A stretch of DNA of 64,000 nt from Acidimicrobiales bacterium. GTDB lineage: Bacteria > Actinomycetota > Acidimicrobiia > Acidimicrobiales > Bog-793. Position 1 is the stretch's first letter. Every line of letters starts with the position of its first letter. The notes beneath the pieces were generated by a model that had not been told where the DNA came from, searched no databases, and saw only the letters and a program-made list of their open reading frames with translations. Location: assembly GCA_050012675.1 (NCBI GenBank), contig JBEKGS010000001.1, positions 733-64,732 on the forward strand. Reading direction: 5' to 3'. Shown in pieces: positions 9,542 to 53,371 of the stretch. The position numbers were made by a program, and so were the translations under genes.

Positions 9542-9556
9542 GGGATCCACCGGGAA

Positions 9557-9880: not shown

Positions 9881-9885
9881 CGTGC

Positions 9886-10906: not shown

Positions 10907-11491
10907 TCACAGTCTCGCGAGCGCGCGTCGGGTCGTGACAACAACGGCGAAAAGCCACAACGGAGGTGCGGCAGCCGCGCAGCGCTCGGAGAGTCCCAGC
11001 AGTGCGCCATGGCTCTCGAGCGCGTACCACGCCGCGAGCCCAAGGCAGACTGCCGCCGCAACGAAACTCGGAGTAGGTGTCAAAAGCGGCGCAGGCTGTC
11101 GTCGATGCGAAGCGAACACCGGCCACGTACAGCAGGTCAGCGCCGCCGCGATAACCGCGAGTTCATGCGCGAGCGAGTAGCCGTATCGCGGCTCTCGGTA
11201 CACGGCGATCAAGAGCGTCGCCACCCCTCCGACGGCGAGCAGGACGCGGCCGACACGCCCCGCAGGCCGCAGGCCGAACGCCGCGAGCAGATAGCACAGG
11301 GCCAAACCGGCTAGGGCTGAAGTCATCACCCACGAATCGGTCGCTCCCGGTCGGGCAAGGTCGCTGATGGTGTCGCGGACCGGGTTGTACGCACCCGGCT
11401 GCAGAGCCGTGGCAACAAGAAAGCCGCCGATGAGGAGCACCGGGGCCGCGCTCGCGGCCGCCACCGCCCACCAGGGGATCGTTTTCACCAT
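10907..11491 (-). CDS. DUF998 family integral membrane protein
   Basis: The product has about six hydrophobic helices. The N-terminal block AYNPVRDTISDLARPGATDSWVMTSALAGLALCYLLAAFGL is typical of DUF998. Confidence 0.7.
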   Translation of the reverse strand: MVKTIPWWAVAAASAAPVLLIGGFLVATALQPGAYNPVRDTISDLARPGATDSWVMTSALAGLALCYLLAAFGLRPAGRVGRVLLAVGGVATLLIAVYREPRYGYSLAHELAVIAAALTCCTWPVFASHRRQPAPLLTPTPSFVAAAVCLGLAAWYALESHGALLGLSERCAAAAPPLWLFAVVVTTRRALARL

Positions 11492-11793
11492 GGGATCCTA
11501 CGCGCCGGACTGCCCACCCGACCCCCAGTGAGGACCGGAGTCTTACCGTTCCCAGCTGAAGTAATGGACCCCGCTGTTATCCGCCAGAGTGCGGCTTGAC
11601 CGGTCGTCGCAAGATTCGTGGAACTCGTCTTGGCAGGAAGAGCCGCTGGCCCAATCCGGCCCAGGGGCGCCGCGCCATGACGACGTCGAACTCATCCACC
11701 CGGCATTGATGGCCAGAGGCGGCATCGGTGAGGACGCGTCCGTGCGCCAAGTCCAGCGGCCCAACTCCAGTGACCCTCGGGATTCGTCGAAAG

Positions 11794-12561
11794 CTAGCCC
11801 ATTCGGCTCGTCGGTGACGTGCCGAAACGAGCGGCTACAGCCTGTTTCAGCCCGTGCGGCCAACGGTCCGATACCGCGTCGGTCGCCGTGACGAGCTGAC
11901 GTTGAGCCTTGGGGTCACCCGCAAAGGCGCGGATCGACAACTCTGGCTCCAGATTCGCTATTGCCAGGATCGCGCCGGCGCATTCCATTGCCCCAGCCAG
12001 TAGGACGAGGTTCGTGGAGCCTACGTAGAGCCATCCGGCAAACACGTCGAGTTCCTGGGATAGCCGGTGGGGATCCCCGCTCGAGTCCTTGAGGCCGACA
12101 ACCGGAAGTTCCGGGAGGACCGAAACGGGCAGTCCCGGTGGTGAGAAAGCCGGGAAGTGATAGGCAAGCACGCTTGCCCCTCCCGCGGCCTCAGCCACCA
12201 GTTCGTAATATTCGCGAGCATCAGAGCTCCGCGGCGGCGAGAGCGCGAGTACAGCGTCGGCCCCCGCTTCCAGGACCACCTTGGTCAGGTGGACTGCCTG
12301 GCGGGCGGACGGGGCCCCGGCGCCGGCCAGGACCGGCACCTGCGGCGGCAAGGTGGCCCGCACGGTGCCGACCAGGACGGCGTACTCATCGGGATCAAGT
12401 GAGGCGGACTCTCCCGTAGACCCGGCGACGAGGACGGCCTGAATCCCGATCTCCACCAGACGACTCGCATGTTCAGCCGTCGCCCCTGCATCGACGGCCC
12501 CGGAGGAGTCGAACAGAGTGAGCAGGGCGACCCCGACACCGGAGAAGATCGGAACGCTCAT
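11794..12561 (-). CDS. dihydrodipicolinate synthase/N-acetylneuraminate lyase (DapA) family class I aldolase
   Basis: The ATG at 12561 has an AGGAGG SD. Motifs include VAGSTGESASL, LAYHFP and the Schiff-base lysine in VVGLKDSSGD. Confidence 0.85.
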   Translation of the reverse strand: MSVPIFSGVGVALLTLFDSSGAVDAGATAEHASRLVEIGIQAVLVAGSTGESASLDPDEYAVLVGTVRATLPPQVPVLAGAGAPSARQAVHLTKVVLEAGADAVLALSPPRSSDAREYYELVAEAAGGASVLAYHFPAFSPPGLPVSVLPELPVVGLKDSSGDPHRLSQELDVFAGWLYVGSTNLVLLAGAMECAGAILAIANLEPELSIRAFAGDPKAQRQLVTATDAVSDRWPHGLKQAVAARFGTSPTSRMG

Positions 12562-12569
12562 CGTGCCTC

Positions 12570-12597
12570 CTGATTGTTTGGCTGGCTGATTGTTTGG
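12570..12597. repeat. tandem direct repeat CTGATTGTTTGG (x2, 16-nt period) in the DapA-family gene leader
   Basis: Seen directly in the sequence: CTGATTGTTTGG-CTGG-CTGATTGTTTGG. It lies immediately upstream of the minus-strand SD and start at 12561. Confidence 0.5.
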
Positions 12598-12731
12598 GCC
12601 GGTCCCTCGCGGCCACTCTTTCGGCTCCCGCGGCCAGAAGGTACCGATCGAGGACGTCTCAACTCGCCGTCCTCCGGCTCTGAGGAAGTCGGCCCTTGTC
12701 GGGTGCAAGGCGTCGCAGTAACGTTAGTCGA

Positions 12732-12751
12732 TTGTCGTCAGGCGACGACAA
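12732..12751. promoter_or_regulatory. perfect inverted repeat TTGTCGTC-AGGC-GACGACAA, candidate operator or leader hairpin of the ABC operon
   Basis: Seen directly in the sequence. It ends 10 nt before the GGAGGGG SD of the solute-binding-protein gene. The GT...AC-type palindrome is compatible with GntR-family operators. Confidence 0.4.
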
Positions 12752-12772
12752 GGCAAGAACGGAGGGGCTCCA

Positions 12773-14407
12773 TTGAACTTGGTCAAGAACAAGTATCGGA
12801 ATCACCGATGGGCCGCGTTGATCGGCGTCGCATGCCTTGTAGGAACCCTCACGGTCGCCCTGGCGCCCAGTGCATCCTCGGCGTCGGGCTCAGGCTCGGG
12901 TCCCCGATACGGCGGAATCTTTCAAACAGCGTTCCAGTCCAGTCCGACGACGTTTGACCCGCAGGTCTGTTACGACGCCACGTGCTGGGACAACATGGAG
13001 ATGATCTTCAACCGTCTCTACGACTACGAGACGGCGGGCACGACGCTCGAGCCCGAGGCCGCGACAGCCATGCCGGTGAGATCGGACGGCGGCAAGGTCT
13101 ACACGATCTCCATCCGCAAGGGCATGGAGTTCTCCAACGGCAAGCCCGTGACGGCAGCCGATTTTGCCTACTCGTTCTCTCGGATCTGCAACCCGGCGAC
13201 GAAGTCGCCCGTGGTCGGCTTCTGGGACGAGGTGGTGGGTTGTGCGGCCTACGCCAAGAAGCCCACGGGTTACGTCTCGGGCATCAAGCCCCTATCGCCG
13301 TACTCGCTGCAGATCACGCTGACCGAGCCCGACGCGGCGTTCGTCTATGTCCTGGCCATGCCCCACGCCTCGGTCATCCCGACCGGCACGGGTCCCCAGC
13401 AGGCTCAGCACCCGCTGGGCTCGGGACCGTACGAGCTCGTCAGCTACACCCCAGGTCAGTCGATTGTCTTGCAGAAGAACCCCCACTACTGGAACAAGAT
13501 CTACCCGTACACCGACGGCGTCTACGAGAAGCTGGGCGTGAGCCCTCAGGTGCAGCTGCTCGAGCTCGAGAAGGGTCAACTCGACCTGATGGGTGACGTT
13601 CTGCCGAACTCGGACTACTTGAGCGTCATCGAGAACCCGTCGTTGAAGAAGCAGACGGTCACGATCTCGGCGTTGGACACCTATTTTTTGACGCTGAACA
13701 CGCAGATGAAGCCGTTCAACAACCCTCTCGTCCGAGAGGCGGTTTCGTACGCCGTCAACCGGTCGTCACTGCTGAAGTTCGTCAACGGCCAAGGCACCGT
13801 AGCCACGGGCTTCATCCCCCCGGGCGTGAAGGGCTACACCACCCAGAACATGGTCAACCCCCTGAACGTGGCCAAGGCCAAGGCGCTGCTGAAGCAGGCC
13901 GGGTACCCGAAGGGCTTCTCGACGAGCATGTACAGCTGGAACACCCAGCCCTGGACGAACCTGGACACGGCCCTGCAACAGCAGCTCGCCGCGGTCGGCA
14001 TCCAGGTGGCAGTGCACGCCATTCAACAGAGCACGTTCTTTACGCTCGCGGCCACGCCGGGCAAGACCCCCATGACATTGACATTCTGGGTGGCCGACTT
14101 CCCGGACGGCAGCGACTTCTTCAACGCGCTCGTGTCGTGCGCGGCGGACATTCCCGGAGGACAGAACTACCCCTTCTACTGCAATCACGCCGTAGACAGC
14201 GAGATCGCCCAGGGACTGGCCGATCCGAGCAGCGCCACGATGTACTACGTCGCCGCGACGAAGAAGTTGCTCGCTGACAACCCGATTGTCCCTCTTTACT
14301 TCGGGACGGTGACGACGGTGTACGGCTCGAACGTCGGTGGTTTCGCCCAGAACCCGATCTGGGCCTACATGATCGACCGTTACTGGTTGAAGAACCCTTC
14401 CGCCTAA
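12773..14407 (+). CDS. ABC transporter substrate-binding protein, family 5 (peptide/nickel/opine type)
   Basis: The TTG start has a GGAGGGG SD. A signal peptide is followed by a Ser/Gly linker. The product shows SBP_bac_5-like blocks along its whole length (544 aa). Confidence 0.9.
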   Translation: MNLVKNKYRNHRWAALIGVACLVGTLTVALAPSASSASGSGSGPRYGGIFQTAFQSSPTTFDPQVCYDATCWDNMEMIFNRLYDYETAGTTLEPEAATAMPVRSDGGKVYTISIRKGMEFSNGKPVTAADFAYSFSRICNPATKSPVVGFWDEVVGCAAYAKKPTGYVSGIKPLSPYSLQITLTEPDAAFVYVLAMPHASVIPTGTGPQQAQHPLGSGPYELVSYTPGQSIVLQKNPHYWNKIYPYTDGVYEKLGVSPQVQLLELEKGQLDLMGDVLPNSDYLSVIENPSLKKQTVTISALDTYFLTLNTQMKPFNNPLVREAVSYAVNRSSLLKFVNGQGTVATGFIPPGVKGYTTQNMVNPLNVAKAKALLKQAGYPKGFSTSMYSWNTQPWTNLDTALQQQLAAVGIQVAVHAIQQSTFFTLAATPGKTPMTLTFWVADFPDGSDFFNALVSCAADIPGGQNYPFYCNHAVDSEIAQGLADPSSATMYYVAATKKLLADNPIVPLYFGTVTTVYGSNVGGFAQNPIWAYMIDRYWLKNPSA

Positions 14408-14452
14408 ACCGCCAAGTGCCCACGACCAACCGCGTTCGCGTCGTCAAGAGCA

Positions 14453-15496
14453 GTGGTTTCAGCGTCATCGGTTGAACCGGTGCTGCGACGCGACGCGGTG
14501 GTCGTGGTCAATCGTCTGTCGGTCGCCTTCCCGAGCAGGACCGGCAGTGGCGAAGTCGTCCGCGATCTCTCCTTCTCGGTGAAAGCGGGACAACGCGTCG
14601 GACTCGTTGGTGAGTCCGGCTGCGGCAAGTCAATGACGGCGCGGGCCATCATGCAGCTCATCCCCGTTCCCGGTCGCATCAGCGGCGGTGAGGTCTACGT
14701 CGGCGGTGACCAGAACCCGGCAAGCGCCGCCAGTGCCAAACGCTGGCGCGGCACCACGGTGGCCATGATCACCCAGGACCCGCTCTCCAGCCTCAACCCA
14801 CTTGTGCGCATCGGGGTTCAGATCACCGAGATGCTCCGTTATCACGGCCGTCTCTCACGAGCCCAAGCCCGAACGCGGGCCGTCGAGTTGTTGAACGCCG
14901 TAGGCATCCCCAATCCCAAGCGCACGATGCGCCAATTCCCCAATGTCCTCTCGGGCGGTATGCGCCAGCGCGTCGCGCTGGCCATAGCCATAAGTTGCAA
15001 CCCGAGTTTGCTGATAGCCGACGAGCCGACTACTGCGCTGGACGTCACCATCCAGGCACAGGTTCTCGACCTGCTCGAGCAGATGACGGCCGAGCACAAC
15101 AGTGCCGTCCTGCTGATCACCCATGACCTCGGAGTCGTGGCGAATTTCTGCGAGGAGATCCTCGTGATGTACGCGGGGCGGATCGTGGAGACAGGCCCGA
15201 CTGAGCATCTCCTCGAGAGCCCTCAACACCCCTACACGGTTGCACTGCTGGCGTCGGTGCCGTCGATGACCGAGGAGGTGCCCGAACGCCTCAACTCGAT
15301 TTCCGGAAGCCCGCCCGTGGGCGGACTCGACATGCGCGGTTGCGCCTTCGCGCCGCGTTGTCAACTGGCTCAGCCCAAGTGTCTCGACATCGAGCCACAG
15401 TTGCGTGAATTGGGGTATTCGGCACGTCGCGTGGCCTGTCATGCCGCGGGTGAACCCAGCTGGCCGGGACGACGCACCGCAGAGGTAGTCCCGTGA
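14453..15496 (+). CDS. ABC transporter ATP-binding protein (DppD/OppD-like)
   Basis: Walker A GESGCGKS, signature LSGGMRQR and Walker [13 protein letters not shown] are present, with an oligopeptide-type C-terminal domain. Confidence 0.9.
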
Positions 15497-16497
15497 GCAA
15501 GACGGCGACGTCGCTTCTCGAGGTGCGTGACCTGGCGGTTCACTTTCGCGTGCGAAAGGGTCTCGCGGCCTCGCGCGCTGTGAAGGCCGTCGACGGAGTC
15601 TCCTTCGACCTGATGGCCGGCCACACGCTCGGTATCGCCGGTGAGTCCGGCTCAGGCAAGAGCACTGTCGCCCGCACGCTCGTGCGCATCGTCCGTCCCA
15701 CTGGCGGAACAATCGCCTTTGACGGTGCCGAGGTGGCGAACCTGCGGGGCCAGCCACTCAAGCGGTACCGGCGTCGGATGCAGATGATCTACCAGGACCC
15801 CTATGACTCTCTTGACCCGCGTATGTCGGTGCTCGAGGTCATCGGCGAGGCCCTGACGGTGCGCGGACTACCGAAGAATCAGCACACAGGCGAGGTTGAG
15901 CGGCTCCTCGGCCGTGTCAACTTGCCCGTCTCGGTCGCCACACGCTTCCCGGGACAGCTCTCGGGCGGTCAACGCCAGCGCGTGTCGATCGCTCGGGCTC
16001 TTGCGGTGAACCCTGAGATCATCATCTGCGATGAAGCCGTAGCCGCACTCGACGTCTCGATCCGCGCGCAGATCCTGAATCTGTTGAAGGACATCCAGCG
16101 CGACACCGGTGTGGGCTATCTCTTCATCTCGCACGACCTGTCGACGCTGCGCTTCATGGCGCATCGTGTCGCCATCATGTACGTCGGGCGAGTCGTCGAG
16201 TACGGCACCAGCGAGGAGGTCTTGACCAATCCGCTGCACCCCTACACCAAGGCCCTCATCGCTGCGGTGCCGAGTGTCACCTCGCGGGGGCGACTCCGCC
16301 TCAAGTTGCGGGGAGAGCCCCCGGACCCGGGCGATCCGCCCTCAGGCTGTCCCTTCCATCCGCGTTGCCCTGAGGCGATCGACGAGTGCCGCCGTGTGCG
16401 CCCCGACCTGGTCGCCGTCCCCGGGGGCCAGTCGGTGGCATGCCATGTGGTGTTCCGTTCGCGCCCGAGCGTGCAAGCCCCAGGGTGGCCGGCGTGA
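15493..16497 (+). CDS. ABC transporter ATP-binding protein (DppF/OppF-like)
   Basis: Walker A GESGSGKS, signature LSGGQRQR and the C-terminal GCPFHPRCP motif are present. It overlaps the upstream gene by 4 nt. Confidence 0.9.
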   Translation: MSKTATSLLEVRDLAVHFRVRKGLAASRAVKAVDGVSFDLMAGHTLGIAGESGSGKSTVARTLVRIVRPTGGTIAFDGAEVANLRGQPLKRYRRRMQMIYQDPYDSLDPRMSVLEVIGEALTVRGLPKNQHTGEVERLLGRVNLPVSVATRFPGQLSGGQRQRVSIARALAVNPEIIICDEAVAALDVSIRAQILNLLKDIQRDTGVGYLFISHDLSTLRFMAHRVAIMYVGRVVEYGTSEEVLTNPLHPYTKALIAAVPSVTSRGRLRLKLRGEPPDPGDPPSGCPFHPRCPEAIDECRRVRPDLVAVPGGQSVACHVVFRSRPSVQAPGWPA

Positions 16498-17426
16498 TCA
16501 ACCTGCCCGAGAACGAGATCGTCCCTGACTTGGTCGGCATCGAGCCCGTCGTGCTCAGCCAACCCAACTTCTGGAGCCGAGCCGGCAAGAGCCTGTTGCA
16601 CGACCCCGTTGCGCTGTGCTCGGTGCTATTCATCTTGCTGCTCGTGGTCGTCGCGGTGTTCGCGCCGTGGATCGCGCCCTACAACCCGTTGCGTGAGTTC
16701 GCCAACGGCCTCTCGGAGGTGGGCGCGCCGGTGGCACCGAACAGTCACTTCCTCCTCGGCACCGACGAGGCCGGTCGCGACGTGCTTTCGCGTCTGATTT
16801 TCGGCGCGCGGGTTTCGCTATTGGTTGGCGTGGTCGCGACCGCCCTCGCCTCGACGATCGGTGTGCTGATCGGAGCCGTCGCCGGCTACGTCGGCGGGGT
16901 CACCGAGTCGGTTCTCATGCGTTTCACCGACATGGTGCTGTCGTTCCCGATTCTGCTCTTCTGTGTGGCCCTGATCGCGGTAACGGGCCCGAGCACTCGC
17001 AACGTGGTCCTCGTCATCGCCTTCGCGTACTGGACTTACCTGGCGCGTGTGGTGCGCGGCCAGGTGCTCTCGCTCAAAGAGCGCGAGTTCGTCACCGCAG
17101 CGCGCACGCTCGGCGTCGGGCACTTCAAGATCATCTTCAAACACGTCATGCCCCACCTGATGCCGACGATCATCGTCTACGGCACCCTCGGGGTTGCGAC
17201 GTCGATCCTCATTGAGGCCTCCCTCTCCTTTCTTGGCATCGGGGTGCCTCTGCCCCAGGCTTCGTGGGGCGGGATGATCTCCGAGGGGCAGCAGTACTTC
17301 CAGACTGCGCCGTGGCTTCTGATCGCGCCTGGCGTGGCGCTGATCCTGACGGTGCTCTCGATCAATCTGGCGGGCGACTGGCTGACCGATGTGCTGGACG
17401 CGACGAGGCGGGAGATCGGGCGATGA
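16494..17426 (+). CDS. ABC transporter permease (DppC/OppC-like)
   Basis: The GTG at 16494 forms a GTGA overlap with the upstream stop. The N-terminal OppC_N-like block FWSRAGKSLLHDPVAL is followed by six transmembrane segments. Confidence 0.9.
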   Translation: MINLPENEIVPDLVGIEPVVLSQPNFWSRAGKSLLHDPVALCSVLFILLLVVVAVFAPWIAPYNPLREFANGLSEVGAPVAPNSHFLLGTDEAGRDVLSRLIFGARVSLLVGVVATALASTIGVLIGAVAGYVGGVTESVLMRFTDMVLSFPILLFCVALIAVTGPSTRNVVLVIAFAYWTYLARVVRGQVLSLKEREFVTAARTLGVGHFKIIFKHVMPHLMPTIIVYGTLGVATSILIEASLSFLGIGVPLPQASWGGMISEGQQYFQTAPWLLIAPGVALILTVLSINLAGDWLTDVLDATRREIGR

Positions 17427-18361
17427 TCGGGTGGCTCGTCCGACGGTTCCTGCAGATGCTGCTGGTGGTTTTCGGCGTCGTGTCGCTTGCTTTCGTCTTC
17501 GCCTTCCTTGTGCCGGCCAATCCCGCCCGTATGGTTGCGGGTCCTCAGGCAAGCCCCGTGGCGGTCGCCTCCATTGCCCGCCAACTCGGCCTCGACCGCT
17601 CTGTATGGTCGCAGTACCTGAGTTTTCTTGCCCGTCTGGCTCACGGCAACCTCGGGGTCTCCTTCGTCCTCGAGGGTCGCACCGTGGCCAGCGAGATCTG
17701 GGGGGCGCTGCCCTACACGGCTTTTTTGGCGCTCGGCGGAGTCATCTGGGAGATCGTGCTCGGTGTCCCCACGGGCATCATCGCCGCCTACAGGCCACGC
17801 AGCCTCATCGACCGCGCGACCACCCTCGGCGCGCTCTTCGGGCTTTCCGCTCCACCGTTCTGGCTGGGACTGATGCTGATCTACTTCCTCGCCTACAAGG
17901 TCTCGCTCTTTCCGCTCAACGGCGTGGGTCACCCTCTCATCTGGTACATGGTCCTGCCGAGCTTCACCCTCGGGGTCGGCGGGGCGGCCTTCTACTCACG
18001 CATGGTGCGCACCACGATGCTCCAGGTTCTGCGCTCGCCGTTCATCGAGTTCGTCCGCCTGAAGGGCATGCCGGAACGCACCATCCTTTTCCGCCACGTG
18101 TTGCGTCACGCCTTGACCCCGGTCGTCACGATGCTCGGGATGGACCTGGGATATTTCCTGGGCGGGGTTCTCATCATCGAGTCGATCTTCGGGATTCCCG
18201 GAGTGGGCCAACTGGCCTACAACTCCATCTCCACCCTTGACATCCCGATGATCACGGGCACCGTGCTGGTGGCGGCCGTGTTCATGGTGGTCATGAGCTT
18301 CATCGTCGATGTGACCTACACCTTCATCGACCCGCGCGTGAGGTTGAGCCGTGCCAAGTGA
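17423..18361 (+). CDS. ABC transporter permease (DppB/OppB-like)
   Basis: The ATG at 17423 forms an ATGA overlap. The N-terminus MIGWLVRRFLQMLLVVFGVVSLAFVF is typical of DppB. Confidence 0.9.
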   Translation: MIGWLVRRFLQMLLVVFGVVSLAFVFAFLVPANPARMVAGPQASPVAVASIARQLGLDRSVWSQYLSFLARLAHGNLGVSFVLEGRTVASEIWGALPYTAFLALGGVIWEIVLGVPTGIIAAYRPRSLIDRATTLGALFGLSAPPFWLGLMLIYFLAYKVSLFPLNGVGHPLIWYMVLPSFTLGVGGAAFYSRMVRTTMLQVLRSPFIEFVRLKGMPERTILFRHVLRHALTPVVTMLGMDLGYFLGGVLIIESIFGIPGVGQLAYNSISTLDIPMITGTVLVAAVFMVVMSFIVDVTYTFIDPRVRLSRAK

Positions 18362-18463
18362 CACCGGCCCGTGCGGTCACCCTCGCTCTTCTGGGCGCCC
18401 CACGGCGCTGATCCCTCGACAACTGATCTGTCCACGCTGGTGGTGCAGGAAGGAGCAATGAAA

Positions 18464-19594
18464 ATGAGCAAGAAGGAAGTCCGGGTCGCAGTCATCGGAG
18501 CCGGCCGATGGGCCGAGCGCGCGCACATCCCTGGATGGCAGCGCGACGAACGTGTCGAGGTGGCCGCCGTCGTTGACGTCAACCCGGCGCTCGTCAAAGA
18601 GACGGCTGATCGTTTCGGCATCGCTCGCGCGGTGAGCGACTACCGCGACGTGCTCGACGACCCAAACATCGACGTCGTGGACGTGACCACGGGCAACGAC
18701 ACGCATTTTGAGATCTCGTGGGCTTCCCTAGAGGCCGGCAAGCACGTGCTTTGTGAAAAGCCGGTGCACCACGACGCGCGCGAGACCTCGCGCGCCGCGG
18801 CTCTGGCCGAGGCGAAGGGCCTGAAGACCAAGCTCGGCTTCACGTTCCGCTATGCGCCGGCGATCCAGTACGCCAAGGACCTGATCGACGAGGGCTTCGT
18901 CGGCGTGCCCTACATCTTCAACGGCTACGAGCAGAACAGCCAGTGGATCGACCCGTCGACGCCGCTTCGCCAGGCCGAGGACGCTCCCGGAGACGACAAC
19001 GAGATCGCAGTCTCATCCATCGAGGGCTATGGCGCGCCGACCATCGACATAATGCACTGGTGGGTCAAGAGCCGAATCACCAACGTCGTGGGCACGATGC
19101 GCAACTTCGTTCCCGAGCGTGTCCTGCGCTCGAGCGGGAAGATGGAGCGGATCAATATCGACGACGGCGACATGTGGATCTGCGAGTTCGAGGACGACGT
19201 CATCGCCTCTATGCAGTCGTCCTACGTCACGGTGGGCAACTACCCGGGCATCGAGGTGCGCCTGTACGGATCTGAGGGTGCCGTGATAGTCCGCCTGGTC
19301 GAGGAGTTCGGCATCTGCCAGACCATCAAGACGGCCACAAAGAACTCGGTGGAGTTCGTCGAGCGGGAGATCCCCGAGCGCTACTTCCCGAGCGGCGGAA
19401 CCAGCCGGGAGCAGTGGCCTTCGCTGTTCTACTCGAACCTGATAGGCAACTTCGTCGACGAGATTGTCGGACAGGCGCCCGAGGCTCAGGGAGACTTCGC
19501 CCAGGGCGCGCTGGTCCAGCGAACCATCAACGCCTTCGAGCGCTCGTTCCGACAGCGGCGCTGGGTGCATTTCAGCGAGGTCGAGGGTGCCTGA
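18464..19594 (+). CDS. Gfo/Idh/MocA family oxidoreductase
   Basis: The Rossmann N-terminus VRVAVIGAGRWAERAHIPGW and the EKP motif in VLCEKPV are present. The ATG at 18464 lies 8 nt after AAGGAG. An alternative ATG at 18458 is possible. Confidence 0.85.
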   Translation: MSKKEVRVAVIGAGRWAERAHIPGWQRDERVEVAAVVDVNPALVKETADRFGIARAVSDYRDVLDDPNIDVVDVTTGNDTHFEISWASLEAGKHVLCEKPVHHDARETSRAAALAEAKGLKTKLGFTFRYAPAIQYAKDLIDEGFVGVPYIFNGYEQNSQWIDPSTPLRQAEDAPGDDNEIAVSSIEGYGAPTIDIMHWWVKSRITNVVGTMRNFVPERVLRSSGKMERINIDDGDMWICEFEDDVIASMQSSYVTVGNYPGIEVRLYGSEGAVIVRLVEEFGICQTIKTATKNSVEFVEREIPERYFPSGGTSREQWPSLFYSNLIGNFVDEIVGQAPEAQGDFAQGALVQRTINAFERSFRQRRWVHFSEVEGA

Positions 19595-21080
19595 AACGAC
19601 TCTGCTGGCCGCCCACCAGTGGGGCGAGCTGGACCGGGCCTCGGCGATGCCGCTTTTGCGTGGCGTCGTCGCCGAGGCTGAGACCGCCGGTGCGGAGTTC
19701 TGCGACGTCCGCCTCTCTGAGACCGAGGAGCTGCGCCTTTACGCCGTCTCCGAACAGGCGCCCGACGAGCGTCTCGAGAGCCACGCGGGCATCGGAGCAC
19801 GGGTGCTGGTGGACGGCGTGTGGGGCTTCGCCTCCGAGCCGCTACGTGACGATGACGACGCCCGTCTTGTGGCGCGCGCGGCAATCGCCAACGCGCGTGC
19901 CGCAAGTGAGGTCGCCGGCGCGCGGGTGACGCTTCCCCCGCGTGAAGCTGAGCTCGGTCTCTACCAGACTGACGTCGACATCGACCCGTTCCTCGTCAGC
20001 CCAGCTGAGCGGGAGCAGCTTGTCGTTGAGACGATGCGCGCCGCGGGCGGCCAACGCGGCGTCGTGCGCGTGCAGGCGGGGGTGAACGCCAAGCGTCAGC
20101 ACCGCTTCTTCGCCAACTCCGAGGGCTCGCTCCAAGAACAGCACTTCGTGGAGTCCGGCGGCATGGTGCTGGCCGTTGCAGCCGACGGTCACCTCGCTCA
20201 GCGACGCAGCTACCCCAATTCCTTCCACGGCAACACCGCTGCCGCCGGCTGGGAGTACGTTCTCGGCCTAGATCTTGTCAACCAGGCCGAGCGCGTCGGC
20301 ATCGAAGCCGTTCAGTTGCTGAGCGCCCCCGTGGTGGCCTCGGGCTACTCCTCGCTGGTGATCGGTCCGGCCCAGATGGCGTTGCAGATCCACGAATCGA
20401 CGGGCCACGCCATTGAGCTCGACCGTATCCTCGGCGACGAGGCCAACTTCGCGGGTCGTTCCTTCATCACCCGGGACGCCGTCGGGAAGCTTCGTTACGG
20501 CTCACCAGCGGTCAACATCGTCGCCGACGCGACTGTGCGTGGGACACGGGGCAGCTTCATGTTCGACGATGAGGGTACTCGCACGGTCCCGACGACCCTG
20601 ATCGGCGAAGGGGTCGTGCGCAACTTTCTTTCGAGCCGGGACAGCGCGGCACGCCAGGGACTCACCTCCTCGGGGGCAGCGCGCTCGGACGGCTGGGCCT
20701 ACCTCCCGTTGTGCTTTGCCACCAACGTCTTTCTCCAGCCCGGCGAGGGTTCGACCGACGAGCTCCTGGAGCGAATGGGCGACGGCTACTACATCGACGA
20801 CAACCGCAGCTGGTCCATCGACTCAATGCGATGGAACTTCCAGTTCGGGACCGAGATCGCCTGGGAGGTCCGTAAGGGCAGGAGAACTCGTCTGGTGCGG
20901 GACTTCTCCTACGGCGGCTTGACGCCGGAATTCTGGGGCTCGGTCGAGGCGTCCGCCGGGCCCGAGGCCTTTCGCACCTTCGGGATGCCCTGTGGCAAGG
21001 GCGAGCCCAAGCAATGGGGCTTTCTCTCTCACGGGGCCGCTCCCACCCTGGTACGCGACGTCAAGATCGGAGTCTCATGA
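19587..21080 (+). CDS. tldD: TldD-type zinc metalloprotease subunit
   Basis: The GTG at 19587 overlaps the upstream gene by 8 nt. The HExxxH motif reads HESTGH (20391-20408). The conserved C-terminus is GMPCGKGEPKQ...APTLV. Confidence 0.85.
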   Translation: MPETTLLAAHQWGELDRASAMPLLRGVVAEAETAGAEFCDVRLSETEELRLYAVSEQAPDERLESHAGIGARVLVDGVWGFASEPLRDDDDARLVARAAIANARAASEVAGARVTLPPREAELGLYQTDVDIDPFLVSPAEREQLVVETMRAAGGQRGVVRVQAGVNAKRQHRFFANSEGSLQEQHFVESGGMVLAVAADGHLAQRRSYPNSFHGNTAAAGWEYVLGLDLVNQAERVGIEAVQLLSAPVVASGYSSLVIGPAQMALQIHESTGHAIELDRILGDEANFAGRSFITRDAVGKLRYGSPAVNIVADATVRGTRGSFMFDDEGTRTVPTTLIGEGVVRNFLSSRDSAARQGLTSSGAARSDGWAYLPLCFATNVFLQPGEGSTDELLERMGDGYYIDDNRSWSIDSMRWNFQFGTEIAWEVRKGRRTRLVRDFSYGGLTPEFWGSVEASAGPEAFRTFGMPCGKGEPKQWGFLSHGAAPTLVRDVKIGVS

Positions 21081-22459
21081 GCCTCGGGACATGGTTCGGG
21101 GCCGACCAGTTGCTCACGACGCTCGAGGCGGCGCTCGCAGGCAGCCCTGCCGACCAGGTGGAGATCTCTGCCACCAGTCGGGTGGGTCACCATACGCGCT
21201 TTGCCGCTGAGCGGATCCACCAGGCACAAACGATCATCGAGTGCCAGGTGTTGGTGCGCGCAGTGGTGGGCACCGGTAGCGCGCGCGTGGCCGTGAACTC
21301 CCTTCATCTGGTGCCGCGTGCCGTTGCCGAGGCCAGCGCCCTGGCACGTTCGCGAGACGGGCTGGAGGGCGCCGAGGTGCCCTATGACGTTGCCGCGGGC
21401 CAGATCGACTGCGACACGACGGGTCTGTGGGTCGAAGCAACGGCCGCCTGGGACGTCGGCGCGCGCTCGCGTCTCGCCGGAATCGTCATGGCCGCGGCTC
21501 AGCAGGCCGGGGGCACGGTGAACGGCACCTTGACGGCGGCTTCGAGCGAGCTCGCGGTCGTGACCAGTCGGGGCGTACGTGCCCACGGGGCGGCCACCGA
21601 GGCAGGTTTCACCATGACTATCCGCTTCGGGGAGGCCTCGTCGTACATCGGTGACCTCTCGCGCGACGCCGGCACCTTGAACGTGCAGCACCGCGCGCTC
21701 GAGGCGATCGCCGCCACGGCGCAGGTGCGCGAGGTGGTTCCCGTGCCCGACGGGGTCCACGACGTCGTCTTCGGACCGCTCGCCGCCGGGGAACTGGTCG
21801 GCTTCGTGCCTGACTTCGGCTTCACGGCCCCGGCCCTCAGAGCTGGCATCGGTCTCGTGGCCCAACACGGTGGCGAAATCGTGGCACCGGAGTTTGTCAC
21901 GATCGCCGATGACGCGCGCGCCGGGGTCGGACTGCCGTTCCCCTTCGACTTCGAGGGCAGTGCCAAGAAGAGCGTTGTGCTCATCGATCGCGGTCGTGTG
22001 GGCGCGGCGGTGAGCGATCGGGCGAGCGCTTCGATGACCGACGGGATGTCGACCGGCCACGCCTCGATCGGCCGAGAGCAATCGCCCGAGCCTGCTTGTG
22101 CCAACCTTGTCATGGCGTCGGGCACTCAGAGCGAGGACGAGCTCGTCGCCGGCATCGAGCGGGGCCTGTACGTGCAGCGTCTTTGGTACAACCGCCTTGT
22201 CGATGCTGAAGCCGGCACCGTCGTTGGCACCAGCCGCGACGCCTGCTTCCTGATCGAGAACGGCAGGCGCACCGAGGCCTTGGCCGGCGGGCGGTTCAAT
22301 GAGAGCATCATCGAGGCGTTACGCCGCACGGACGCGCTGAGCAGCCTGCGCTACAGCCAGCCGATACCGAACCTCTGGAACAGCTGCATCACCGCGCCGG
22401 CCATGCGCGTACGCGGCTTTTGCTTCGGCACGCGCACAAGGAGAGAGGAAGGCTCGTGA
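21077..22459 (+). CDS. pmbA: PmbA/TldE-type protease partner subunit (no HExxxH)
   Basis: The start forms an ATGA overlap with tldD. PmbA_TldD family blocks include GLYVQRLWYNRLVD and ITAPAMRVRGF. Confidence 0.85.
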   Translation: MSLGTWFGADQLLTTLEAALAGSPADQVEISATSRVGHHTRFAAERIHQAQTIIECQVLVRAVVGTGSARVAVNSLHLVPRAVAEASALARSRDGLEGAEVPYDVAAGQIDCDTTGLWVEATAAWDVGARSRLAGIVMAAAQQAGGTVNGTLTAASSELAVVTSRGVRAHGAATEAGFTMTIRFGEASSYIGDLSRDAGTLNVQHRALEAIAATAQVREVVPVPDGVHDVVFGPLAAGELVGFVPDFGFTAPALRAGIGLVAQHGGEIVAPEFVTIADDARAGVGLPFPFDFEGSAKKSVVLIDRGRVGAAVSDRASASMTDGMSTGHASIGREQSPEPACANLVMASGTQSEDELVAGIERGLYVQRLWYNRLVDAEAGTVVGTSRDACFLIENGRRTEALAGGRFNESIIEALRRTDALSSLRYSQPIPNLWNSCITAPAMRVRGFCFGTRTRREEGS

Positions 22460-23337
22460 ACGTCGCCAGCAACGTTGACCGCCTCTTGACCCAGGTGCTC
22501 GCCGGCGAGGTCTGGCCGCCCCTCGCGGACCGTAACGGTTTTCGGATCGACCCGGAGGGGCGAGCCTTTTTTCTGCCCGGCATGGGCGGGGTCACTCTCG
22601 ACGTGCACGTCGGCGATCCGGCGACTGGTTACGCCGGCGACCACGTCGAGCCCGGGCTCTCGGTACGTCACCGCGACCCGGCTGCCAACTACGCCCTCCA
22701 GTACCTGAGTTGTATCGGCAATCGTGTCGAGGTGACGTCGGGACCTGCCAAAGGCGCCGCCGGCTTCGTTATCGGTCAGCATGCCTACGTGCTTGTGGAC
22801 ATGGACAGTGATGACATGCGCCATGTCACCGCGGGAGACCAGGTCAGCGTCTTTGCCGTGGGACAAGGTCTTGTTCTTCACGACCACCCCGAGGTGGTGG
22901 TGAAGAACTGTTCGCCGGCGCTGTTGGCGGCACTCCAGGCAGGCACGACTTCGACGGGCCAACTGGAGGTTCATGTCAGCGCCGTTGTCCCGCCAGAGGC
23001 GATCGGCGCCGGGGCCGGAATGGCTTCGGAGTACGCCAACACCGACCTGATGGGCGCCTATGCAGGAATGGGCGAGGATCTCTCGCTCGGACTGGAGGTC
23101 CTGCGCGTCGGTGACGTGGTGGCGCTCACGGACCAAGACCACCGGTTCGGTAGGGGCTACCGTGAGAACTGGACGACCGTCGGCGTCATCTCGACTGCGA
23201 GCTGCCTGCTCTACGGCCACGGGCCCGGTCCCTCTTCGATCATGAGCGGTCCGGCCGGTGCCTTCAAGGTCGTCATTGATGATTCGGCGAATCTGAGCTC
23301 TTTCAACCTCGGACAACCAAGGGGCACCCGTGAGTGA
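22456..23337 (+). CDS. uncharacterised protein, paralog A (recalled as DUF4438-like; unverified)
   Basis: The start forms a GTGA overlap with pmbA. Motifs shared with the next gene are GDHxxPG, C(I/L)GNRVxV, GDQV, GQG, GD(V/L)VA(L/I)xDxD, GYRxNWxxVGV and GHGPG. Confidence 0.7.
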   Translation: MNVASNVDRLLTQVLAGEVWPPLADRNGFRIDPEGRAFFLPGMGGVTLDVHVGDPATGYAGDHVEPGLSVRHRDPAANYALQYLSCIGNRVEVTSGPAKGAAGFVIGQHAYVLVDMDSDDMRHVTAGDQVSVFAVGQGLVLHDHPEVVVKNCSPALLAALQAGTTSTGQLEVHVSAVVPPEAIGAGAGMASEYANTDLMGAYAGMGEDLSLGLEVLRVGDVVALTDQDHRFGRGYRENWTTVGVISTASCLLYGHGPGPSSIMSGPAGAFKVVIDDSANLSSFNLGQPRGTRE

Positions 23338-24202
23338 GGTCAAGGTGGTCAGAGTCAACCTGCTGGGCCACGTGGACCAGGGCGAGGTCGGCACCGAGCC
23401 CTACCGTGTGGATCGCGACGGGCGGTCCTACGTGGCCGTCGGCGACGGCGGCACGGTGCTCGGACTGCGACTCGGGGAGAGCGTTTTTCGCCATGTCGGC
23501 GACCACGCCGCGCCCGGCGTCTGTCTCGTGCACCCGAGCGACGACGCCCGCCATGCCCTTGTGGGCCTGGCCTGTCTCGGCAATCGGGTCACCGTCCGTA
23601 CCGGCCACGCGTTCGGCCATGTCGGAAGCGTGCTCGGCAAGCGCGGCGGCGGCCAGCGAGTGATCGCAGTTTTCCCTCAGGATGTTCTCGCCCGCCTACG
23701 GCCGGGCGACCAGGTTGCCCTCTTGAGCTGTGGCCAGGGGGCCGCGGCGCCTGTGCCCGGGCTCACGCAGATGAATGTCGCCCCCGCGGCGCTCTCGCTG
23801 CTCGGGCTCACAGTGCAGGGTGACCGCCTAAAGGTGGGCGTGCGCGCCATGTTGCCGAGCCGCTTTGTGGGCAATGGGATCGGTCGGCCGATGGCGATGT
23901 GGGACGTCGACTTGCAGGTCGACTCTGACACATCAGCGACACGTTCCTTGTGCCTCGGCGATCTCGTGGCCATCAGTGACCTTGACGCTCGCACCAACGC
24001 CGGGTACCGGCGTAACTGGATGAGCGTCGGTGTCGTCGTGCACGGAGCGAGCCCCCAACCGGGACACGGACCGGGCGTTATGGTGGTCCTGAGCGGCCCG
24101 GCGGAGCTCTTCTCGGTGGGCGTCGAAGGTGAGGACCACCAGCCTCTGTCCGAGGAGAGGCTCATTTCTGCCGCGAAAGGCGAGGGACGCGATGATGCCT
24201 GA
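23330..24202 (+). CDS. uncharacterised protein, paralog B of the preceding gene
   Basis: The GTG start overlaps the upstream gene by 8 nt. It has the same motif set as 22456..23337 and a similar length. Confidence 0.7.
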   Translation: MSEVKVVRVNLLGHVDQGEVGTEPYRVDRDGRSYVAVGDGGTVLGLRLGESVFRHVGDHAAPGVCLVHPSDDARHALVGLACLGNRVTVRTGHAFGHVGSVLGKRGGGQRVIAVFPQDVLARLRPGDQVALLSCGQGAAAPVPGLTQMNVAPAALSLLGLTVQGDRLKVGVRAMLPSRFVGNGIGRPMAMWDVDLQVDSDTSATRSLCLGDLVAISDLDARTNAGYRRNWMSVGVVVHGASPQPGHGPGVMVVLSGPAELFSVGVEGEDHQPLSEERLISAAKGEGRDDA

Positions 24203-24860
24203 GATGAGAAGCTCCCCTGGAAGCCTGATCAACCGCGCTTCCCTGCCCGAGGTGGTCCACGACGAACTGCGCCGGCGCATCCTCAACGATGAGCTCGCGG
24301 CCGGCGAACGCTTGTTGGAGTCCAAGATTGCCGAGGAGTTCGGCGTGAGCCGCACCACGTTGCGCTCGGCCCTGCACGACCTGGCGAACGAGAACCTGGT
24401 GAAGATCAGCAAGCGTCGTGGGTGCTTCGTCGCGCGCATGGATGCTGCGGAGATCCAAGACACGTGCTTCGCTCGGTTCCTCCTCGAGGCCGGGGCCGCC
24501 TGCGACAAGCTGAACTGGATCACCCCCGAGGCGCTCGATGAGCTCGAGGCCCACGTGCAGGAGATGAAACAGGCCGCGATAGTGGGCGATATGGCGGCGA
24601 TCGTCGATGCGGACACCGATTTCCACGGGCGCATCGTCTCGGCCGGAGAACGCCTACGCGTGCGCGATCTCTGGCACATGCTCGACGGGCAGATGGGCGC
24701 GTTGATGCGCTCGTCGTTCGAGCAGCAGGGCATCAACATGGACGATCTCGTCAAACGCCACGTCGATGTGATCGAGGCGTTGCGCTCGCGCAACGCGAAG
24801 GTGATCAGAGAGGCGATAAAGGACCACTACCTCGAGCGCCACATGCTCGACGGGGACTAG
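24192..24860 (+). CDS. GntR family transcriptional regulator (FadR/FCD subfamily)
   Basis: The HTH block LLESKIAEEFGVSRTTLRSALHDLANENLV is followed by an FCD-like helical domain containing DTDFHGRIV. The ATG at 24192 overlaps the upstream gene. Alternative starts are 24195 and 24204. Confidence 0.85.
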   Translation: MMPEMRSSPGSLINRASLPEVVHDELRRRILNDELAAGERLLESKIAEEFGVSRTTLRSALHDLANENLVKISKRRGCFVARMDAAEIQDTCFARFLLEAGAACDKLNWITPEALDELEAHVQEMKQAAIVGDMAAIVDADTDFHGRIVSAGERLRVRDLWHMLDGQMGALMRSSFEQQGINMDDLVKRHVDVIEALRSRNAKVIREAIKDHYLERHMLDGD

Positions 24861-24867
24861 CGCATAG

Positions 24868-25677
24868 ATGCGCCGGGCCCTTTTCTTGCCTGCCTTCGAC
24901 GGGCTGGCTGACCCCGATCGCCTCGTCCATCTGGCCGTGCAAGCCGAGTTCGCGGGTTGGGACGGTTTTTTCCTGTGGGATCACCTCCTGTACGCCGAGC
25001 CGGTGCGCGACATCCTCGACCCATACGTGTGCCTGGCCGCCATTGCCCAGGCAACCTCGAGAATCCAGCTCGGACCGCTCGTGACGCCCTTGGTACGCCG
25101 GCGCCCGGCGGTGGTCGCCCGCCAGGCCGTCACCCTCGACCTGCTCTCGCACGGGCGCCTAGTGCTCGGGTTTGGCATCGGTGACGACGGCGGTCCCCCA
25201 GGCGAACTCTCCGCTTTCGGTGAGATTCTCGATGCCGCCGCCCGGGGACGTGCGCTGAGCGAGGGTCTCGCAATCCTCACTGGACTGTTTTCGGGCGAGA
25301 AGGTGCACCATGAGGGCGAGTTCTTCCGTGCCGCGGATATCAGCTTCTCGCCTACGCCTTGGGGGCCAGGTGGTATCCCCATCTGGCTAGCAGCGCGCTG
25401 GCCCAACCGGGCGCCGATCCGCCGGGCCGCCAGGTTCCAGGGGGTCGTCGTCATCCAGATGACCCGGCCCGCCGACGTGGCGAAACTGCGTGAACAGCTC
25501 CGCGAGGCGGGTGCCGACCTTGAGCACTTCGAGATCGTGGTGGTGGCCAGCGGCGGCGAGGACGCCAGCGCCTGGGCCGAGGCAGGCGTGACTTGGCTGC
25601 TGACCCAGCTGGGGCCCTATCGGTTGAACTTTGACGAAGCCCTCGAGGTGGTGGCGGCGGGGCCGAGCGCGACCTGA
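24868..25677 (+). CDS. LLM-class (luciferase-like) flavin/F420-dependent oxidoreductase
   Basis: Blocks GWDGFFLWDHL, RIQLGPLVTP and GRLVLGFGIG are typical of the luciferase-like monooxygenase fold. Confidence 0.8.
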   Translation: MRRALFLPAFDGLADPDRLVHLAVQAEFAGWDGFFLWDHLLYAEPVRDILDPYVCLAAIAQATSRIQLGPLVTPLVRRRPAVVARQAVTLDLLSHGRLVLGFGIGDDGGPPGELSAFGEILDAAARGRALSEGLAILTGLFSGEKVHHEGEFFRAADISFSPTPWGPGGIPIWLAARWPNRAPIRRAARFQGVVVIQMTRPADVAKLREQLREAGADLEHFEIVVVASGGEDASAWAEAGVTWLLTQLGPYRLNFDEALEVVAAGPSAT

Positions 25678-26282
25678 CAAGCCTCCGGAGGAACCGGGCG
25701 GCTCAACTTCTCCGAACTGGAGAGCGTCATCTCTAGTCGGAAAGTGAGGTTGCTGGTCGGCGATCCGCATGAACAAAGCTCTGATATGACGAGGTGTCGG
25801 TCTCGTCCGTGAGCGCCTCGACGTGCGCGTGACGACGTCCAGCAGTCCATCGCCCGGCGCCGGTTCGTCCTCCTACATCATGCCCAGGGCCTGCAAATGC
25901 GCCGGGAGACGCAGGCGACGCTCGTCGGACCGGAGCCCAGCCGCAATCTCCGAGGGCCGTAATTTGGTTCCAGGTCTCCCTTACAACTATTGTTAGGGAA
26001 ACCTGAATCATGTGTCGTACAGTGAACGACTGGCAAGCCGATGCGTTGCGAAGGGCTCTATCTTGTGCAGTCCAATGCCATTGCGGCCCATGGCGTGGCG
26101 TCACCGTTCGTGTCGACAACGGCCTTCCAGCGCGGTGCCGATGAAGGTCTCACTGATCATCCATCTCCGTACGTGGAACGAAGTGTTCGCACCATCCGGC
26201 ACCTGAAACCGGCGACACTTGTGGCCCTTCCAATCATCGCAGTTGCCCGAGGTAGCTCTCTCGGCGGACAGCTTGTCGCGAC

Positions 26283-53246: not shown

Positions 53247-53371
53247 GCCGGACCGTCCCTTAGAACCTCTCCGGCCCCGAAGTTGCGGCTGTCGCCGGGC
53301 AGTGGCCCTTTCCTGAAGTCAAGAGGAGACTCGGTGGCACCGAGGCGCAAAGGCCAGGTCTCTTCTCCGCG

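Follow-up and report, generated by a model that had tools for sequence, protein, structure and literature searches.

We examined an operon within a 64,000-nucleotide stretch of DNA (here, the window) from the metagenome-assembled genome (MAG) of a soil actinobacterium of the Acidimicrobiales, in which the genes of an ATP-binding cassette (ABC) importer are joined to those of a Gfo/Idh/MocA dehydrogenase, a TldD/PmbA pair, two paralogous proteins, and a GntR-family regulator. A six-frame map of open reading frames (ORFs) and a junction-by-junction check agree that 11 co-directional genes, free of internal stops, lie on the forward strand at 12773–24860, as a first-pass annotation of the sequence had described. 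Stop and start codons overlap at eight junctions (4, 4, 4, 8, 4, 4, 8, and 11 nt), one more than had been counted. The only gaps, previously put at 45 and about 100 nt, measure 45 nt after the first gene and 96 nt before the dehydrogenase gene (72 and 102 nt with the starts chosen by a public gene caller). The extent of the operon needed amendment, as a twelfth co-directional gene (24868–25677, +), which begins 7 nt past the GntR gene, had been overlooked. The same twelve genes are present in independent public gene calls for the same contig (L145 in our numbering of loci; NCBI GCA_964587825.1).

The first gene (12773–14407) encodes a family-5 solute-binding protein (SBP) of 544 aa (PF00496) with a signal-peptide-like N-terminus. 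It is followed by two Opp/Dpp-type ABC ATPases (14453–15496 and 15493–16497; ABC_tran and oligo_HPY domains; 4-nt overlap), an OppC-like permease (16494–17426; BPD_transp_1 with OppC_N; 4-nt overlaps), and a DppB-like permease (17423–18361; BPD_transp_1_N). This order, SBP-ATPase-ATPase-permease-permease, corrects the one originally given for the transporter genes. After the 96-nt gap (18362–18457, with a small hairpin at 18428–18448) come the Gfo/Idh/MocA NAD(P)-dependent dehydrogenase (hereafter Gfo; 18458–19594; 378 aa; PF01408, PF22725, and PF02894), a TldD-like metallohydrolase subunit (19587–21080; 497 aa; PF19289, PF01523, and PF19290), and its PmbA/TldE-like partner (21077–22459; 460 aa; PF19289, E = 1.1e-33). 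The two paralogs follow at 22456–23337 (293 aa) and 23330–24202 (290 aa). They are indeed paralogous, as had been proposed, but they are not nameless: both carry PF14505 and PF20999, the two Pfam models of DUF4438, and we refer to them as DUF4438a and DUF4438b. The GntR-family regulator with an FCD domain (24192–24860; 222 aa; PF00392 and PF07729) and an oxidoreductase of the luciferase-like monooxygenase (LLM) family, probably F420-dependent (24868–25677; 269 aa; PF00296), complete the series. On the opposite strand, upstream of the SBP gene, lies a DapA/DHDPS-family gene for a class I aldolase or lyase-like protein (11794–12561, −; 255 aa; PF00701). Pfam supports every protein family that had been named from the sequence.

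We then scanned genomes, one per species, using an alignment of DUF4438 proteins as the seed, and mapped all window proteins onto the resulting 80 loci. Presence was counted in the 56 loci with enough flanking sequence, from tblastn layouts and public gene calls. Because some long-read MAGs split genes by frameshift-type errors, we recounted with summed coverage; a filter on the coverage of single high-scoring segment pairs undercounted TldD/PmbA. In three Microflora Danica MAGs (L008, L010, and L012) and at 8623–10004 of L144, Gfo, TldD, and PmbA are split over frames, for which frameshift-type assembly error is a likelier explanation than pseudogenes.

Gfo, DUF4438a, DUF4438b, and GntR were each present in 56/56 loci. 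The ABC ATPases were found in 53 and the permeases in 48–49 of the 56, LLM in 30, TldD together with PmbA in 27, and a DapA-like gene within the flank in 24. The invariant core of the system is Gfo, DUF4438a, DUF4438b, and GntR, almost always accompanied by a Dpp/Opp-type ABC importer. Gfo and the two paralogs, which the first-pass annotation had treated as side players, are members of this core. All but one of the 80 loci are labeled Actinomycetota, the exception being L070, labeled Candidatus Melainabacteria. Carriers include Acidimicrobiales, Solirubrobacterales, Streptosporangiaceae/Trebonia, Pseudonocardiales, Nakamurella, Jatrophihabitans, Dactylosporangium, Microlunatus, and Humibacillus.

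The loci show two architectures. Type A, that of the window, reads SBP-ATPase-ATPase-permease-permease-Gfo-[TldD-PmbA]-DUF4438a-b-GntR-[LLM], with brackets marking genes that may be absent. In type B, found mostly in Streptosporangiaceae, a divergent transporter is followed by 2-hydroxyacid dehydrogenase-Gfo-DUF4438a-b-GntR; DapA-like and short-chain dehydrogenase/reductase (SDR) genes lie nearby, there are extra Gfo paralogs, and TldD/PmbA is absent. The type B SBP is only 26–28% identical to the window SBP.

We also searched metagenome contigs independently with the SBP as the seed, taking proteins of at least 63% identity as orthologs. Every contig that carries an SBP ortholog and is long enough encodes the ABC genes and then Gfo, [TldD-PmbA], DUF4438a, DUF4438b, and GntR. 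Six of these contigs include TldD/PmbA (L084, L086, L087, L088, L108, and L110) and nine do not (L089, L092, L093, L101, L106, L109, L111, L113, and L114). The proposal that the genes form a conserved functional unit rather than a chance adjacency therefore stands. Judged from these gene layouts, the operon is widespread in Actinomycetota and modular in build, with TldD/PmbA, LLM, and the DapA-like gene as interchangeable accessories. Literature searches returned no published description of such an operon, in line with the first-pass annotation, which knew of no characterized system with this composition.

The best start of the DapA-like gene is the ATG at 12561, which has AGGAGG upstream of it, leaving a divergent control region of 211 bp (12562–12772) in agreement with the approximately 210 bp first reported. 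Within it, at exactly the position originally noted (12732–12751), lies the palindrome TTGTCGTC-AGGC-GACGACAA, 21 nt 5′ of the SBP start. This is the sole exact match to TTGTCG-N8-CGACAA within the 64-kb window; with one mismatch allowed, the window holds 3 matches, compared with 0.15 expected. Related palindromes of the type TTGTCG-N(0-10)-CGACAA, such as TTGTCGATTGTCTACAATCGACAA, are located 10–70 nt 5′ of the SBP gene in 46/48 orthologous loci, compared with a palindrome match in only 17% of random 270-nt windows drawn from the same loci. The window palindrome belongs to this conserved putative operator. A 24-nt form, TTGTCGATTGTCnACAATCGACAA, is frequent among the SBP-upstream loci. When the control region was aligned with those of the two nearest relatives (L085 and L001), the sole conserved block was TTAGTCGAkTGTCGyCA...ACAA, just 5′ of the SBP ribosome-binding site. 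In type B loci, the core TCGATTGTCGACA is found at about 7500–7640 in locus coordinates, a location consistent with the divergent intergenic region as mapped from the L143 gene calls.

The regulator itself matches PF00392 (65.4 bits) and PF07729 (66.6 bits), so that both domains of the FadR-like (FCD) subfamily are present, and its gene is found in all 56 well-flanked loci. A palindromic operator of the type GT-N(x)-AC would be expected for this subfamily. Because the palindrome is conserved upstream and every cluster has a GntR/FCD gene, we read it, most simply, as a putative operator that is probably bound by the cluster's own regulator. Immediately 5′ of the DapA-like start codon there is also a direct repeat, with two copies of CTGATTGTTTGG at 12570–12581 and 12586–12597. 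The repeat has GATTGT in common with the putative operator region and is not conserved in L085.

The DUF4438 pair is the most unusual feature of the locus, rather than TldD/PmbA. The scores for PF14505 and PF20999 are 155.9 and 105.8 bits for DUF4438a and 96.5 and 80.4 bits for DUF4438b. The sole solved relative is TM1086 of Thermotoga maritima (PDB 3DCL and 3N99), which DUF4438a matches with an E-value of 1.3e-51. The two paralogs are 35% identical to each other; DUF4438b is 33% identical to TM1086, and DUF4438a is 37–39% identical to it in a Foldseek alignment of its model. Since the identity between a and b is about that of either paralog to TM1086, the duplication appears to be old. DUF4438a is the more conserved of the two across the 80 loci (64–87% identity, compared with 45–83% for DUF4438b), and DUF4438b lies directly 3′ of DUF4438a at all loci except in frameshift-affected assemblies.

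The motifs D-H-x-E-P-G, C-x-G-N, G-Q-G, N-T-D-L, D-x-D-H, and G-H-G-P-G of DUF4438a are invariant or nearly so (at least 89/92). DUF4438b retains D-H, C-x-G-N, G-Q-G, D-x-D, and G-H-G-P-G, and has other residues in place of Glu65 and His229 of DUF4438a. Because the paralogs are adjacent in intact assemblies and both keep the Asp, His, and Cys motifs found throughout the family, these sequences suggest that DUF4438 acts here as a paired, probably catalytic, unit.

An AlphaFold model of DUF4438a was of moderate quality (pLDDT 68.9, pTM 0.75) and superimposed on 3dcl with a TM-score of 0.78 in Foldseek. A Foldseek search of the PDB with this model returned only TM1086, the remaining matches being insignificant small beta-barrels (KOW, ribosomal proteins, and the F1-ATPase N-terminal domain). 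The family is large, with more than 7000 of 8000 scored candidates matching. In Thermotoga, Caloranaerobacter, and Zhenhengia, DUF4438 is single copy and its neighbors are varied and housekeeping-like. In three loci (L081, 8001–9525; L083, 7044–8855; L082, 6346–8864), the single-copy gene adjoins proteases of intramembrane or CPBP type (rhomboid, Rce1-like) or an unannotated 547-aa protein, which may be coincidence. Literature searches for DUF4438, TM1086, and PF14505, and for catabolism combining TldD, GntR, and an ABC transporter, returned nothing relevant; one match to PF14505 was rejected as a mislabeled accession in an unrelated paper.

Gfo contains the Rossmann domain (PF01408, 93.2 bits) and the family C-terminal domain (PF22725, 40.4 bits; PF02894 also matches). 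Among named proteins, the closest to it are levoglucosan dehydrogenase, the dehydrogenases of inositol and scyllo-inositol, and DgpA, and it falls below the equivalog cut-offs of all of them (for example, 129.9 vs 650 for levoglucosan dehydrogenase and 123.1 vs 355 for inositol 2-dehydrogenase). Gfo belongs among the secondary-alcohol dehydrogenases of sugar or cyclitol type.

The SBP matches PF00496 with 287.7 bits (gathering score 32.4; E = 1.8e-85). Its nearest solved structure is 8UPI (MeAmi_SBP), with an E-value of 2e-102 and 35% identity; the next relative follows at 2e-44. MeAmi_SBP of Mesorhizobium sp. binds L-amino-acid amides, and its Asp413 forms a salt bridge with the ligand amino group (Smith et al. 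2024, bioRxiv 10.1101/2024.02.22.581678). In the same protein, Trp34, a Gly-Gly-Met insertion that places Met408, and Trp435 shrink the pocket and exclude larger ligands (bioRxiv 10.1101/2024.02.22.581678). We aligned the window SBP to 8UPI residue by residue. The amine-holding residues are kept: Tyr67, Trp439, and Asp442 correspond to Tyr32, Trp410, and Asp413 of MeAmi_SBP. The amide-specificity residues are not kept: Trp34 is replaced by Ala69, the Gly-Gly-Met insertion by a gap, and Trp435 by Gln464. All five positions (Y67, A69, W439, D442, and Q464) are invariant in 44–45 of 45 orthologs.

Because the window SBP lacks all three elements that shrink the MeAmi_SBP pocket (Trp34, the insertion with Met408, and Trp435), we predict that its own pocket is larger. 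We infer that the ligand has a free amino group and is bulkier than a simple amino-acid amide. The SBP also falls far below the NCBIfam equivalog cut-offs for GsiB (158.6 vs 594), DppA (134.3 vs 1005), and OppA (123.6 vs 947), and so does not represent a characterized dipeptide system.

The TldD-like protein aligns with E. coli TldD (5nj5) over the C-terminal half only (E = 6.7e-20, 75 bits), with its HESTGH in register with the E. coli HEAVGH. HExxxH and PCGKG are invariant in 25/25 TldD orthologs. The protein lies below the NCBIfam equivalog cut-offs (NF008006, 70.4 vs 513; NF040952, 116.6 vs 635), and we assign it to a divergent subfamily. The translation of the PmbA-like partner has no HExxxH, and PmbA always accompanies TldD in related loci. 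Such pairing of an active with an inactive subunit is known for TldD/TldE (PMC10885120). That review also counts N-deacetylases in the family (PMC10885120, citing Vobruba et al. 2022 as reference 135).

The adjacency of TldD/PmbA to the other genes is not limited to this genome and recurs in the 27 loci across many genera. As the pair is missing from about half of the clusters and occupies three different positions, it is a genuine, recurrent, but facultative cassette of the system. The positions are the interval between Gfo and DUF4438a; after GntR (Trebonia); and following GntR yet ahead of DUF4438a (Pseudonocardiales, Nakamurella, and others). Gfo-TldD-PmbA-GntR forms an operon of its own without DUF4438 in L022 (2602–7298) and L039 (3538–8517), where it directly adjoins a DUF4438a-b-GntR operon (8642–12400 and 8642–12412, respectively) that comes with a divergent Gfo gene. 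Each of these two neighborhoods thus has two regulators and two Gfo genes.

Other genomes carry other accessories: a 2-hydroxyacid dehydrogenase in 29 loci, an SDR in 24, a class I/II aminotransferase in 13, further Gfo paralogs in 13, and an M24 peptidase in 5; Lon_C and a glyoxalase-fold protein occur in further clusters. At 1512–5324 of L143, a type B locus, a fusion of an ApbA (ketopantoate-reductase-like) domain with an amidase-signature enzyme, an AstE/AspA-type deacylase, and a GNAT acetyltransferase are encoded beside three Gfo paralogs. The amide hydrolases thus differ between clusters: TldD/PmbA, Amidase with AstE_AspA (L143), M24, or Lon_C. Because various amide hydrolases recur where TldD/PmbA is absent, this variety looks like non-orthologous replacement of one step. 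With its catalytic motifs intact, TldD/PmbA sits here in a regulated catabolic operon in which ordinary amidases can seemingly take its place, which suggests that part of this ubiquitous family acts as an amidase on small molecules or short peptides.

The DapA-like protein matches PF00701 with 92.4 bits (E = 2.7e-26), and its translation contains the motifs GSTGE, YHFP, and GLKDS (with the Schiff-base Lys). It is below every NCBIfam equivalog cut-off (79.8 vs 206 bits for dapA, TIGR00674), which places it in the DHDPS/NAL class I aldolase family rather than as DapA proper. Divergence of its gene from the SBP gene is confined to L084 (identical to the window) and L085 (88%). The LLM protein matches PF00296 with 147.3 bits (E = 8.6e-43) and scores 137.3 bits against the F420-dependent model TIGR03619, below the cut-off of 166.9.

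Taken together, we favor with moderate confidence the view that the locus is a substrate-inducible, GntR-repressed catabolic uptake operon for a small compound bearing an amine and an amide. GntR, bound to the palindrome, would keep the operon repressed, and binding of a pathway metabolite to its FCD domain would lift the repression. The SBP would capture a small free-amino compound through the conserved Asp442 and Trp439; a candidate is an N-substituted aminoacyl amide, or a conjugate resembling a dipeptide, that carries a hydroxylated moiety (sugar, polyol, or hydroxy acid). Once the compound is imported, its amide bond would be cleaved or de-acylated by an amidohydrolase. This step would fall here to TldD/PmbA, acting as a small-molecule or short-peptide amidase, and in other genomes to an amidase-signature enzyme, an AstE/AspA-type deacylase, or an M24 peptidase. 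Gfo would oxidize a secondary alcohol with NAD(P)+, and a DUF4438a/b hetero-oligomer would convert the Gfo-derived intermediate in the pathway-specific step. LLM and the DapA-like protein (elsewhere SDR, 2-hydroxyacid dehydrogenase, or aminotransferase) would funnel the products to central metabolism.

A narrower version of this proposal can be offered only tentatively, and we regard it as doubtful. It holds that DUF4438a/b is a hitherto unrecognized two-subunit enzyme acting on the keto product of its dedicated Gfo. Together they would define a new catabolic route, largely confined to actinobacteria, that degrades an amide conjugate bearing an amine (an aminoacyl- or N-acyl-amino-sugar or cyclitol, for instance), and TldD/PmbA would serve in it as a small-molecule amidase instead of a protease that trims peptides. 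Several other substrates were considered and not adopted: mycothiol-derived GlcN-inositol conjugates, nonulosonic acids, opines or Amadori compounds, and hydroxyproline peptides. Our scans with Pfam and NCBIfam models contained no gene that would be diagnostic of any of these (for example, a PIG-L deacetylase, iol genes, or a NanA equivalog).

Several points weigh against the broader proposal, a catabolic operon for the uptake of a compound with an amine and an amide. Gene content, conservation, motif integrity, pocket differences, and conservation of the putative operator are direct observations, whereas we infer from them what the substrate is like, in which order the steps run, that the DUF4438 proteins form a heteromer and are catalytic, and that GntR acts as a repressor. 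The substrate class was derived from an SBP of 35% identity whose specificity residues differ. As the type B SBP is only distantly similar, the substrates of type A and type B may differ, with perhaps only an intermediate in common. TldD/PmbA could act on ordinary peptides instead of a small-molecule amide. Since only TM1086 matched significantly, the modeled fold of DUF4438 gives no functional lead, and the single-copy occurrence of DUF4438 in non-metabolic contexts in Thermotoga and Clostridia makes a non-enzymatic role possible. Finally, the 96-nt gap with its hairpin before Gfo may allow two differently expressed units.

This last point is the only one among the competing explanations that stays serious, and it concerns transcript structure alone, so that it is compatible with a catabolic uptake operon. 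The transporter genes (12773–18361) and the enzyme and regulator genes (18458–25677) could be expressed as two units through an internal promoter, or through an RNA processing or attenuation site, in the gap between them; we consider this possible, if less than probable. The gap is the only sizeable one in the operon, and in type B loci the enzyme module lies on the strand opposite to that of the transporter. The hairpin at 18428–18448 abuts the Gfo ribosome-binding site, and most type A loci (L007, L011, L015, L103, and others) have a hairpin at the same position, with a sequence that differs between lineages. It may be a processing, attenuation, or stability element. On the other hand, the gap shrinks to only 5–7 nt in L049, L113, and L114, and the folding energy of the window gap is no better than that of shuffled sequences (z = 0.66), compared with a far better value in L103 (z = −3.9). 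A scan of 11500–26400 for sigma-70-like promoters and intrinsic terminators gave no more sites than shuffles, no inverted repeat was found 3′ of the LLM gene, and the Rfam scan detected no riboswitch or other RNA family inside the operon.

The model put forward in the first-pass annotation, in which one fixed pathway dismantles a peptide-like or glyco-peptide conjugate and proteolysis by TldD/PmbA, oxidation by Gfo, aldol cleavage by the DapA-type protein, and the two paralogs are all obligatory, is unlikely. In its favor, the window holds all of these genes in close packing. TldD/PmbA recurs in nearly half of the clusters with its catalytic motifs intact, and Gfo-TldD-PmbA-GntR moves as a unit in L022 and L039. 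However, TldD/PmbA is cleanly missing in close relatives that have the same SBP and core (L004, L089, L092, L093, L106, L109, L111, L113, and L114), which speaks against a fixed TldD/PmbA step. The DapA-like gene is likewise optional rather than a fixed step, given its divergent placement in L084 and L085 only. TldD and a DapA-like gene occur together within the flank in only 1/56 loci, although this count is a lower bound because window-type loci end just short of the DapA position.

It is very improbable that the locus is an ordinary dipeptide, oligopeptide, or glutathione permease (Dpp/Opp/Gsi) that lies by chance beside a housekeeping TldD/PmbA pair and unrelated genes. The SBP, permeases, and ATPases do belong to Dpp/Opp families, and GsiB, DppA, and OppA are among the NCBIfam matches, but the scores are far under the equivalog cut-offs. 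Moreover, Gfo-DUF4438a-b-GntR is always downstream of SBP orthologs, the pocket residues of the SBP form a distinct invariant set, and the genes overlap by 4–11 nt. A biosynthetic cluster for a peptide synthesized ribosomally and modified post-translationally (RiPP) or for another natural product, with TldD/PmbA cutting off a leader peptide and LLM tailoring the product, has almost no likelihood: TldD/E-type proteases and LLM oxidoreductases do occur in RiPP clusters (PMC10885120), but the GntR/FCD regulator is of a type typical of catabolic operons, the Pfam scans detected no core biosynthetic family, and no precursor-peptide ORF turned up, although no dedicated precursor search was made. PADLOC returned no defense match save a generic oxidoreductase model on LLM. 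An ABC system with a solute-binding protein is an importer, which also argues against a biosynthetic cluster.

The surroundings of the operon contain several further features. Just 3′ of it, the gene of an Nramp-family metal transporter (26283–27584, +) precedes that of a metal-dependent DtxR/MntR-type regulator containing a FeoA domain (27711–28379, +), and this pair is probably a manganese or iron uptake module. Nramp and DtxR/MntR-type neighbors are likewise present in L145 and L146. A SAM (S-adenosylmethionine) riboswitch (RF00162; 29247–29333, −; 57.3 bits vs a gathering score of 44.4) is the sole Rfam match in the window. Upstream of the DapA-like gene lie the large subunit of a molybdopterin-dependent hydroxylase of the xanthine dehydrogenase/aldehyde oxidase type (7016–9541, +) and a DUF998 membrane protein (10907–11491, −). 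The G+C content rises from about 0.64–0.66 in the operon region to about 0.70 at the window end (52000–64000).

These findings give DUF4438 a first metabolic context and suggest a candidate small-molecule role for TldD/PmbA. If the two-subunit enzyme proposal were true, DUF4438, for which a crystal structure dates from 2008, would gain its first function, and TldD/PmbA would gain a new physiological role. The function of DUF4438 also becomes experimentally approachable in Actinomycetota, as the proteins there form a fixed pair tied to a single dehydrogenase, a single regulator, and a dedicated importer, and several carriers have been cultured, among them Trebonia kvetii 15TR583, Dactylosporangium vinaceum NRRL B-16297, and Microlunatus flavus. 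The SBP would extend the amide-binding branch of family-5 SBPs to a second specificity class. If the substrate were an ordinary peptide, the locus would be only another nutrient-uptake operon.

The window operon works like other catabolic operons that depend on a binding protein, and its transporter is most similar to that of MeAmi. Among known systems, the MeAmi operon resembles the window operon in its family-5 SBP with the conserved Asp and Trp, and in a Dpp/Opp-type importer encoded together with an amide-cleaving enzyme. The two differ in that enzyme (the amidase FmdA_AmdA in MeAmi, TldD/PmbA in the window, and TldD/PmbA or none in its relatives), in regulation (an ANTAR and AmiC-like regulator pair compared with GntR/FCD), and in host (a proteobacterium compared with an actinobacterium). 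Unlike the MeAmi operon, the window operon has a Gfo dehydrogenase and the DUF4438 pair; Pfam scans found no FmdA_AmdA, ANTAR, or AmiC-like family among its proteins.

The TldD fold can reportedly hydrolyze a small-molecule amide, as is said of the TldD/TldE-like N-deacetylases of lincosamide biosynthesis attributed to Vobruba and colleagues (2022, Microbiol Res). Those enzymes work in a biosynthetic context, in contrast to the catabolic one that we propose for the window pair. E. coli TldD/TldE (PmbA) (MEROPS M103; PDB 5NJ5) shares with the window pair the arrangement of two adjacent paralogs, HExxxH and CGK in TldD, and a partner without HExxxH. However, it is a stand-alone housekeeping pair, whereas the window pair lies inside a regulated catabolic operon and is dispensable in half of the orthologous clusters.

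Pathways of oxidation-assisted cleavage that open with a Gfo/Idh/MocA dehydrogenase, namely those of levoglucosan dehydrogenase (LGDH; PDB 6A3F), of the C-glycoside enzyme DgpA with DgpB/C, and of the Bacteroides glycoside 3-dehydrogenase system BT2157-2159, are similar in that the dehydrogenase precedes a dedicated partner enzyme, which in some cases has two subunits. The window Gfo scores far below the cut-offs of these families, and the window importer, unlike these systems, is of the peptide type. In the window, DUF4438 proteins stand in the place of xylose-isomerase-like TIM-barrel lyases as partners. TM1086 has the same two-domain architecture and invariant motifs as the DUF4438 pair, at 33–38% identity. 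While genes of the TM1086 type are single copy and have a housekeeping-like context, the window and its relatives carry what appears to be an ancient duplicate pair, fixed in a metabolic operon.

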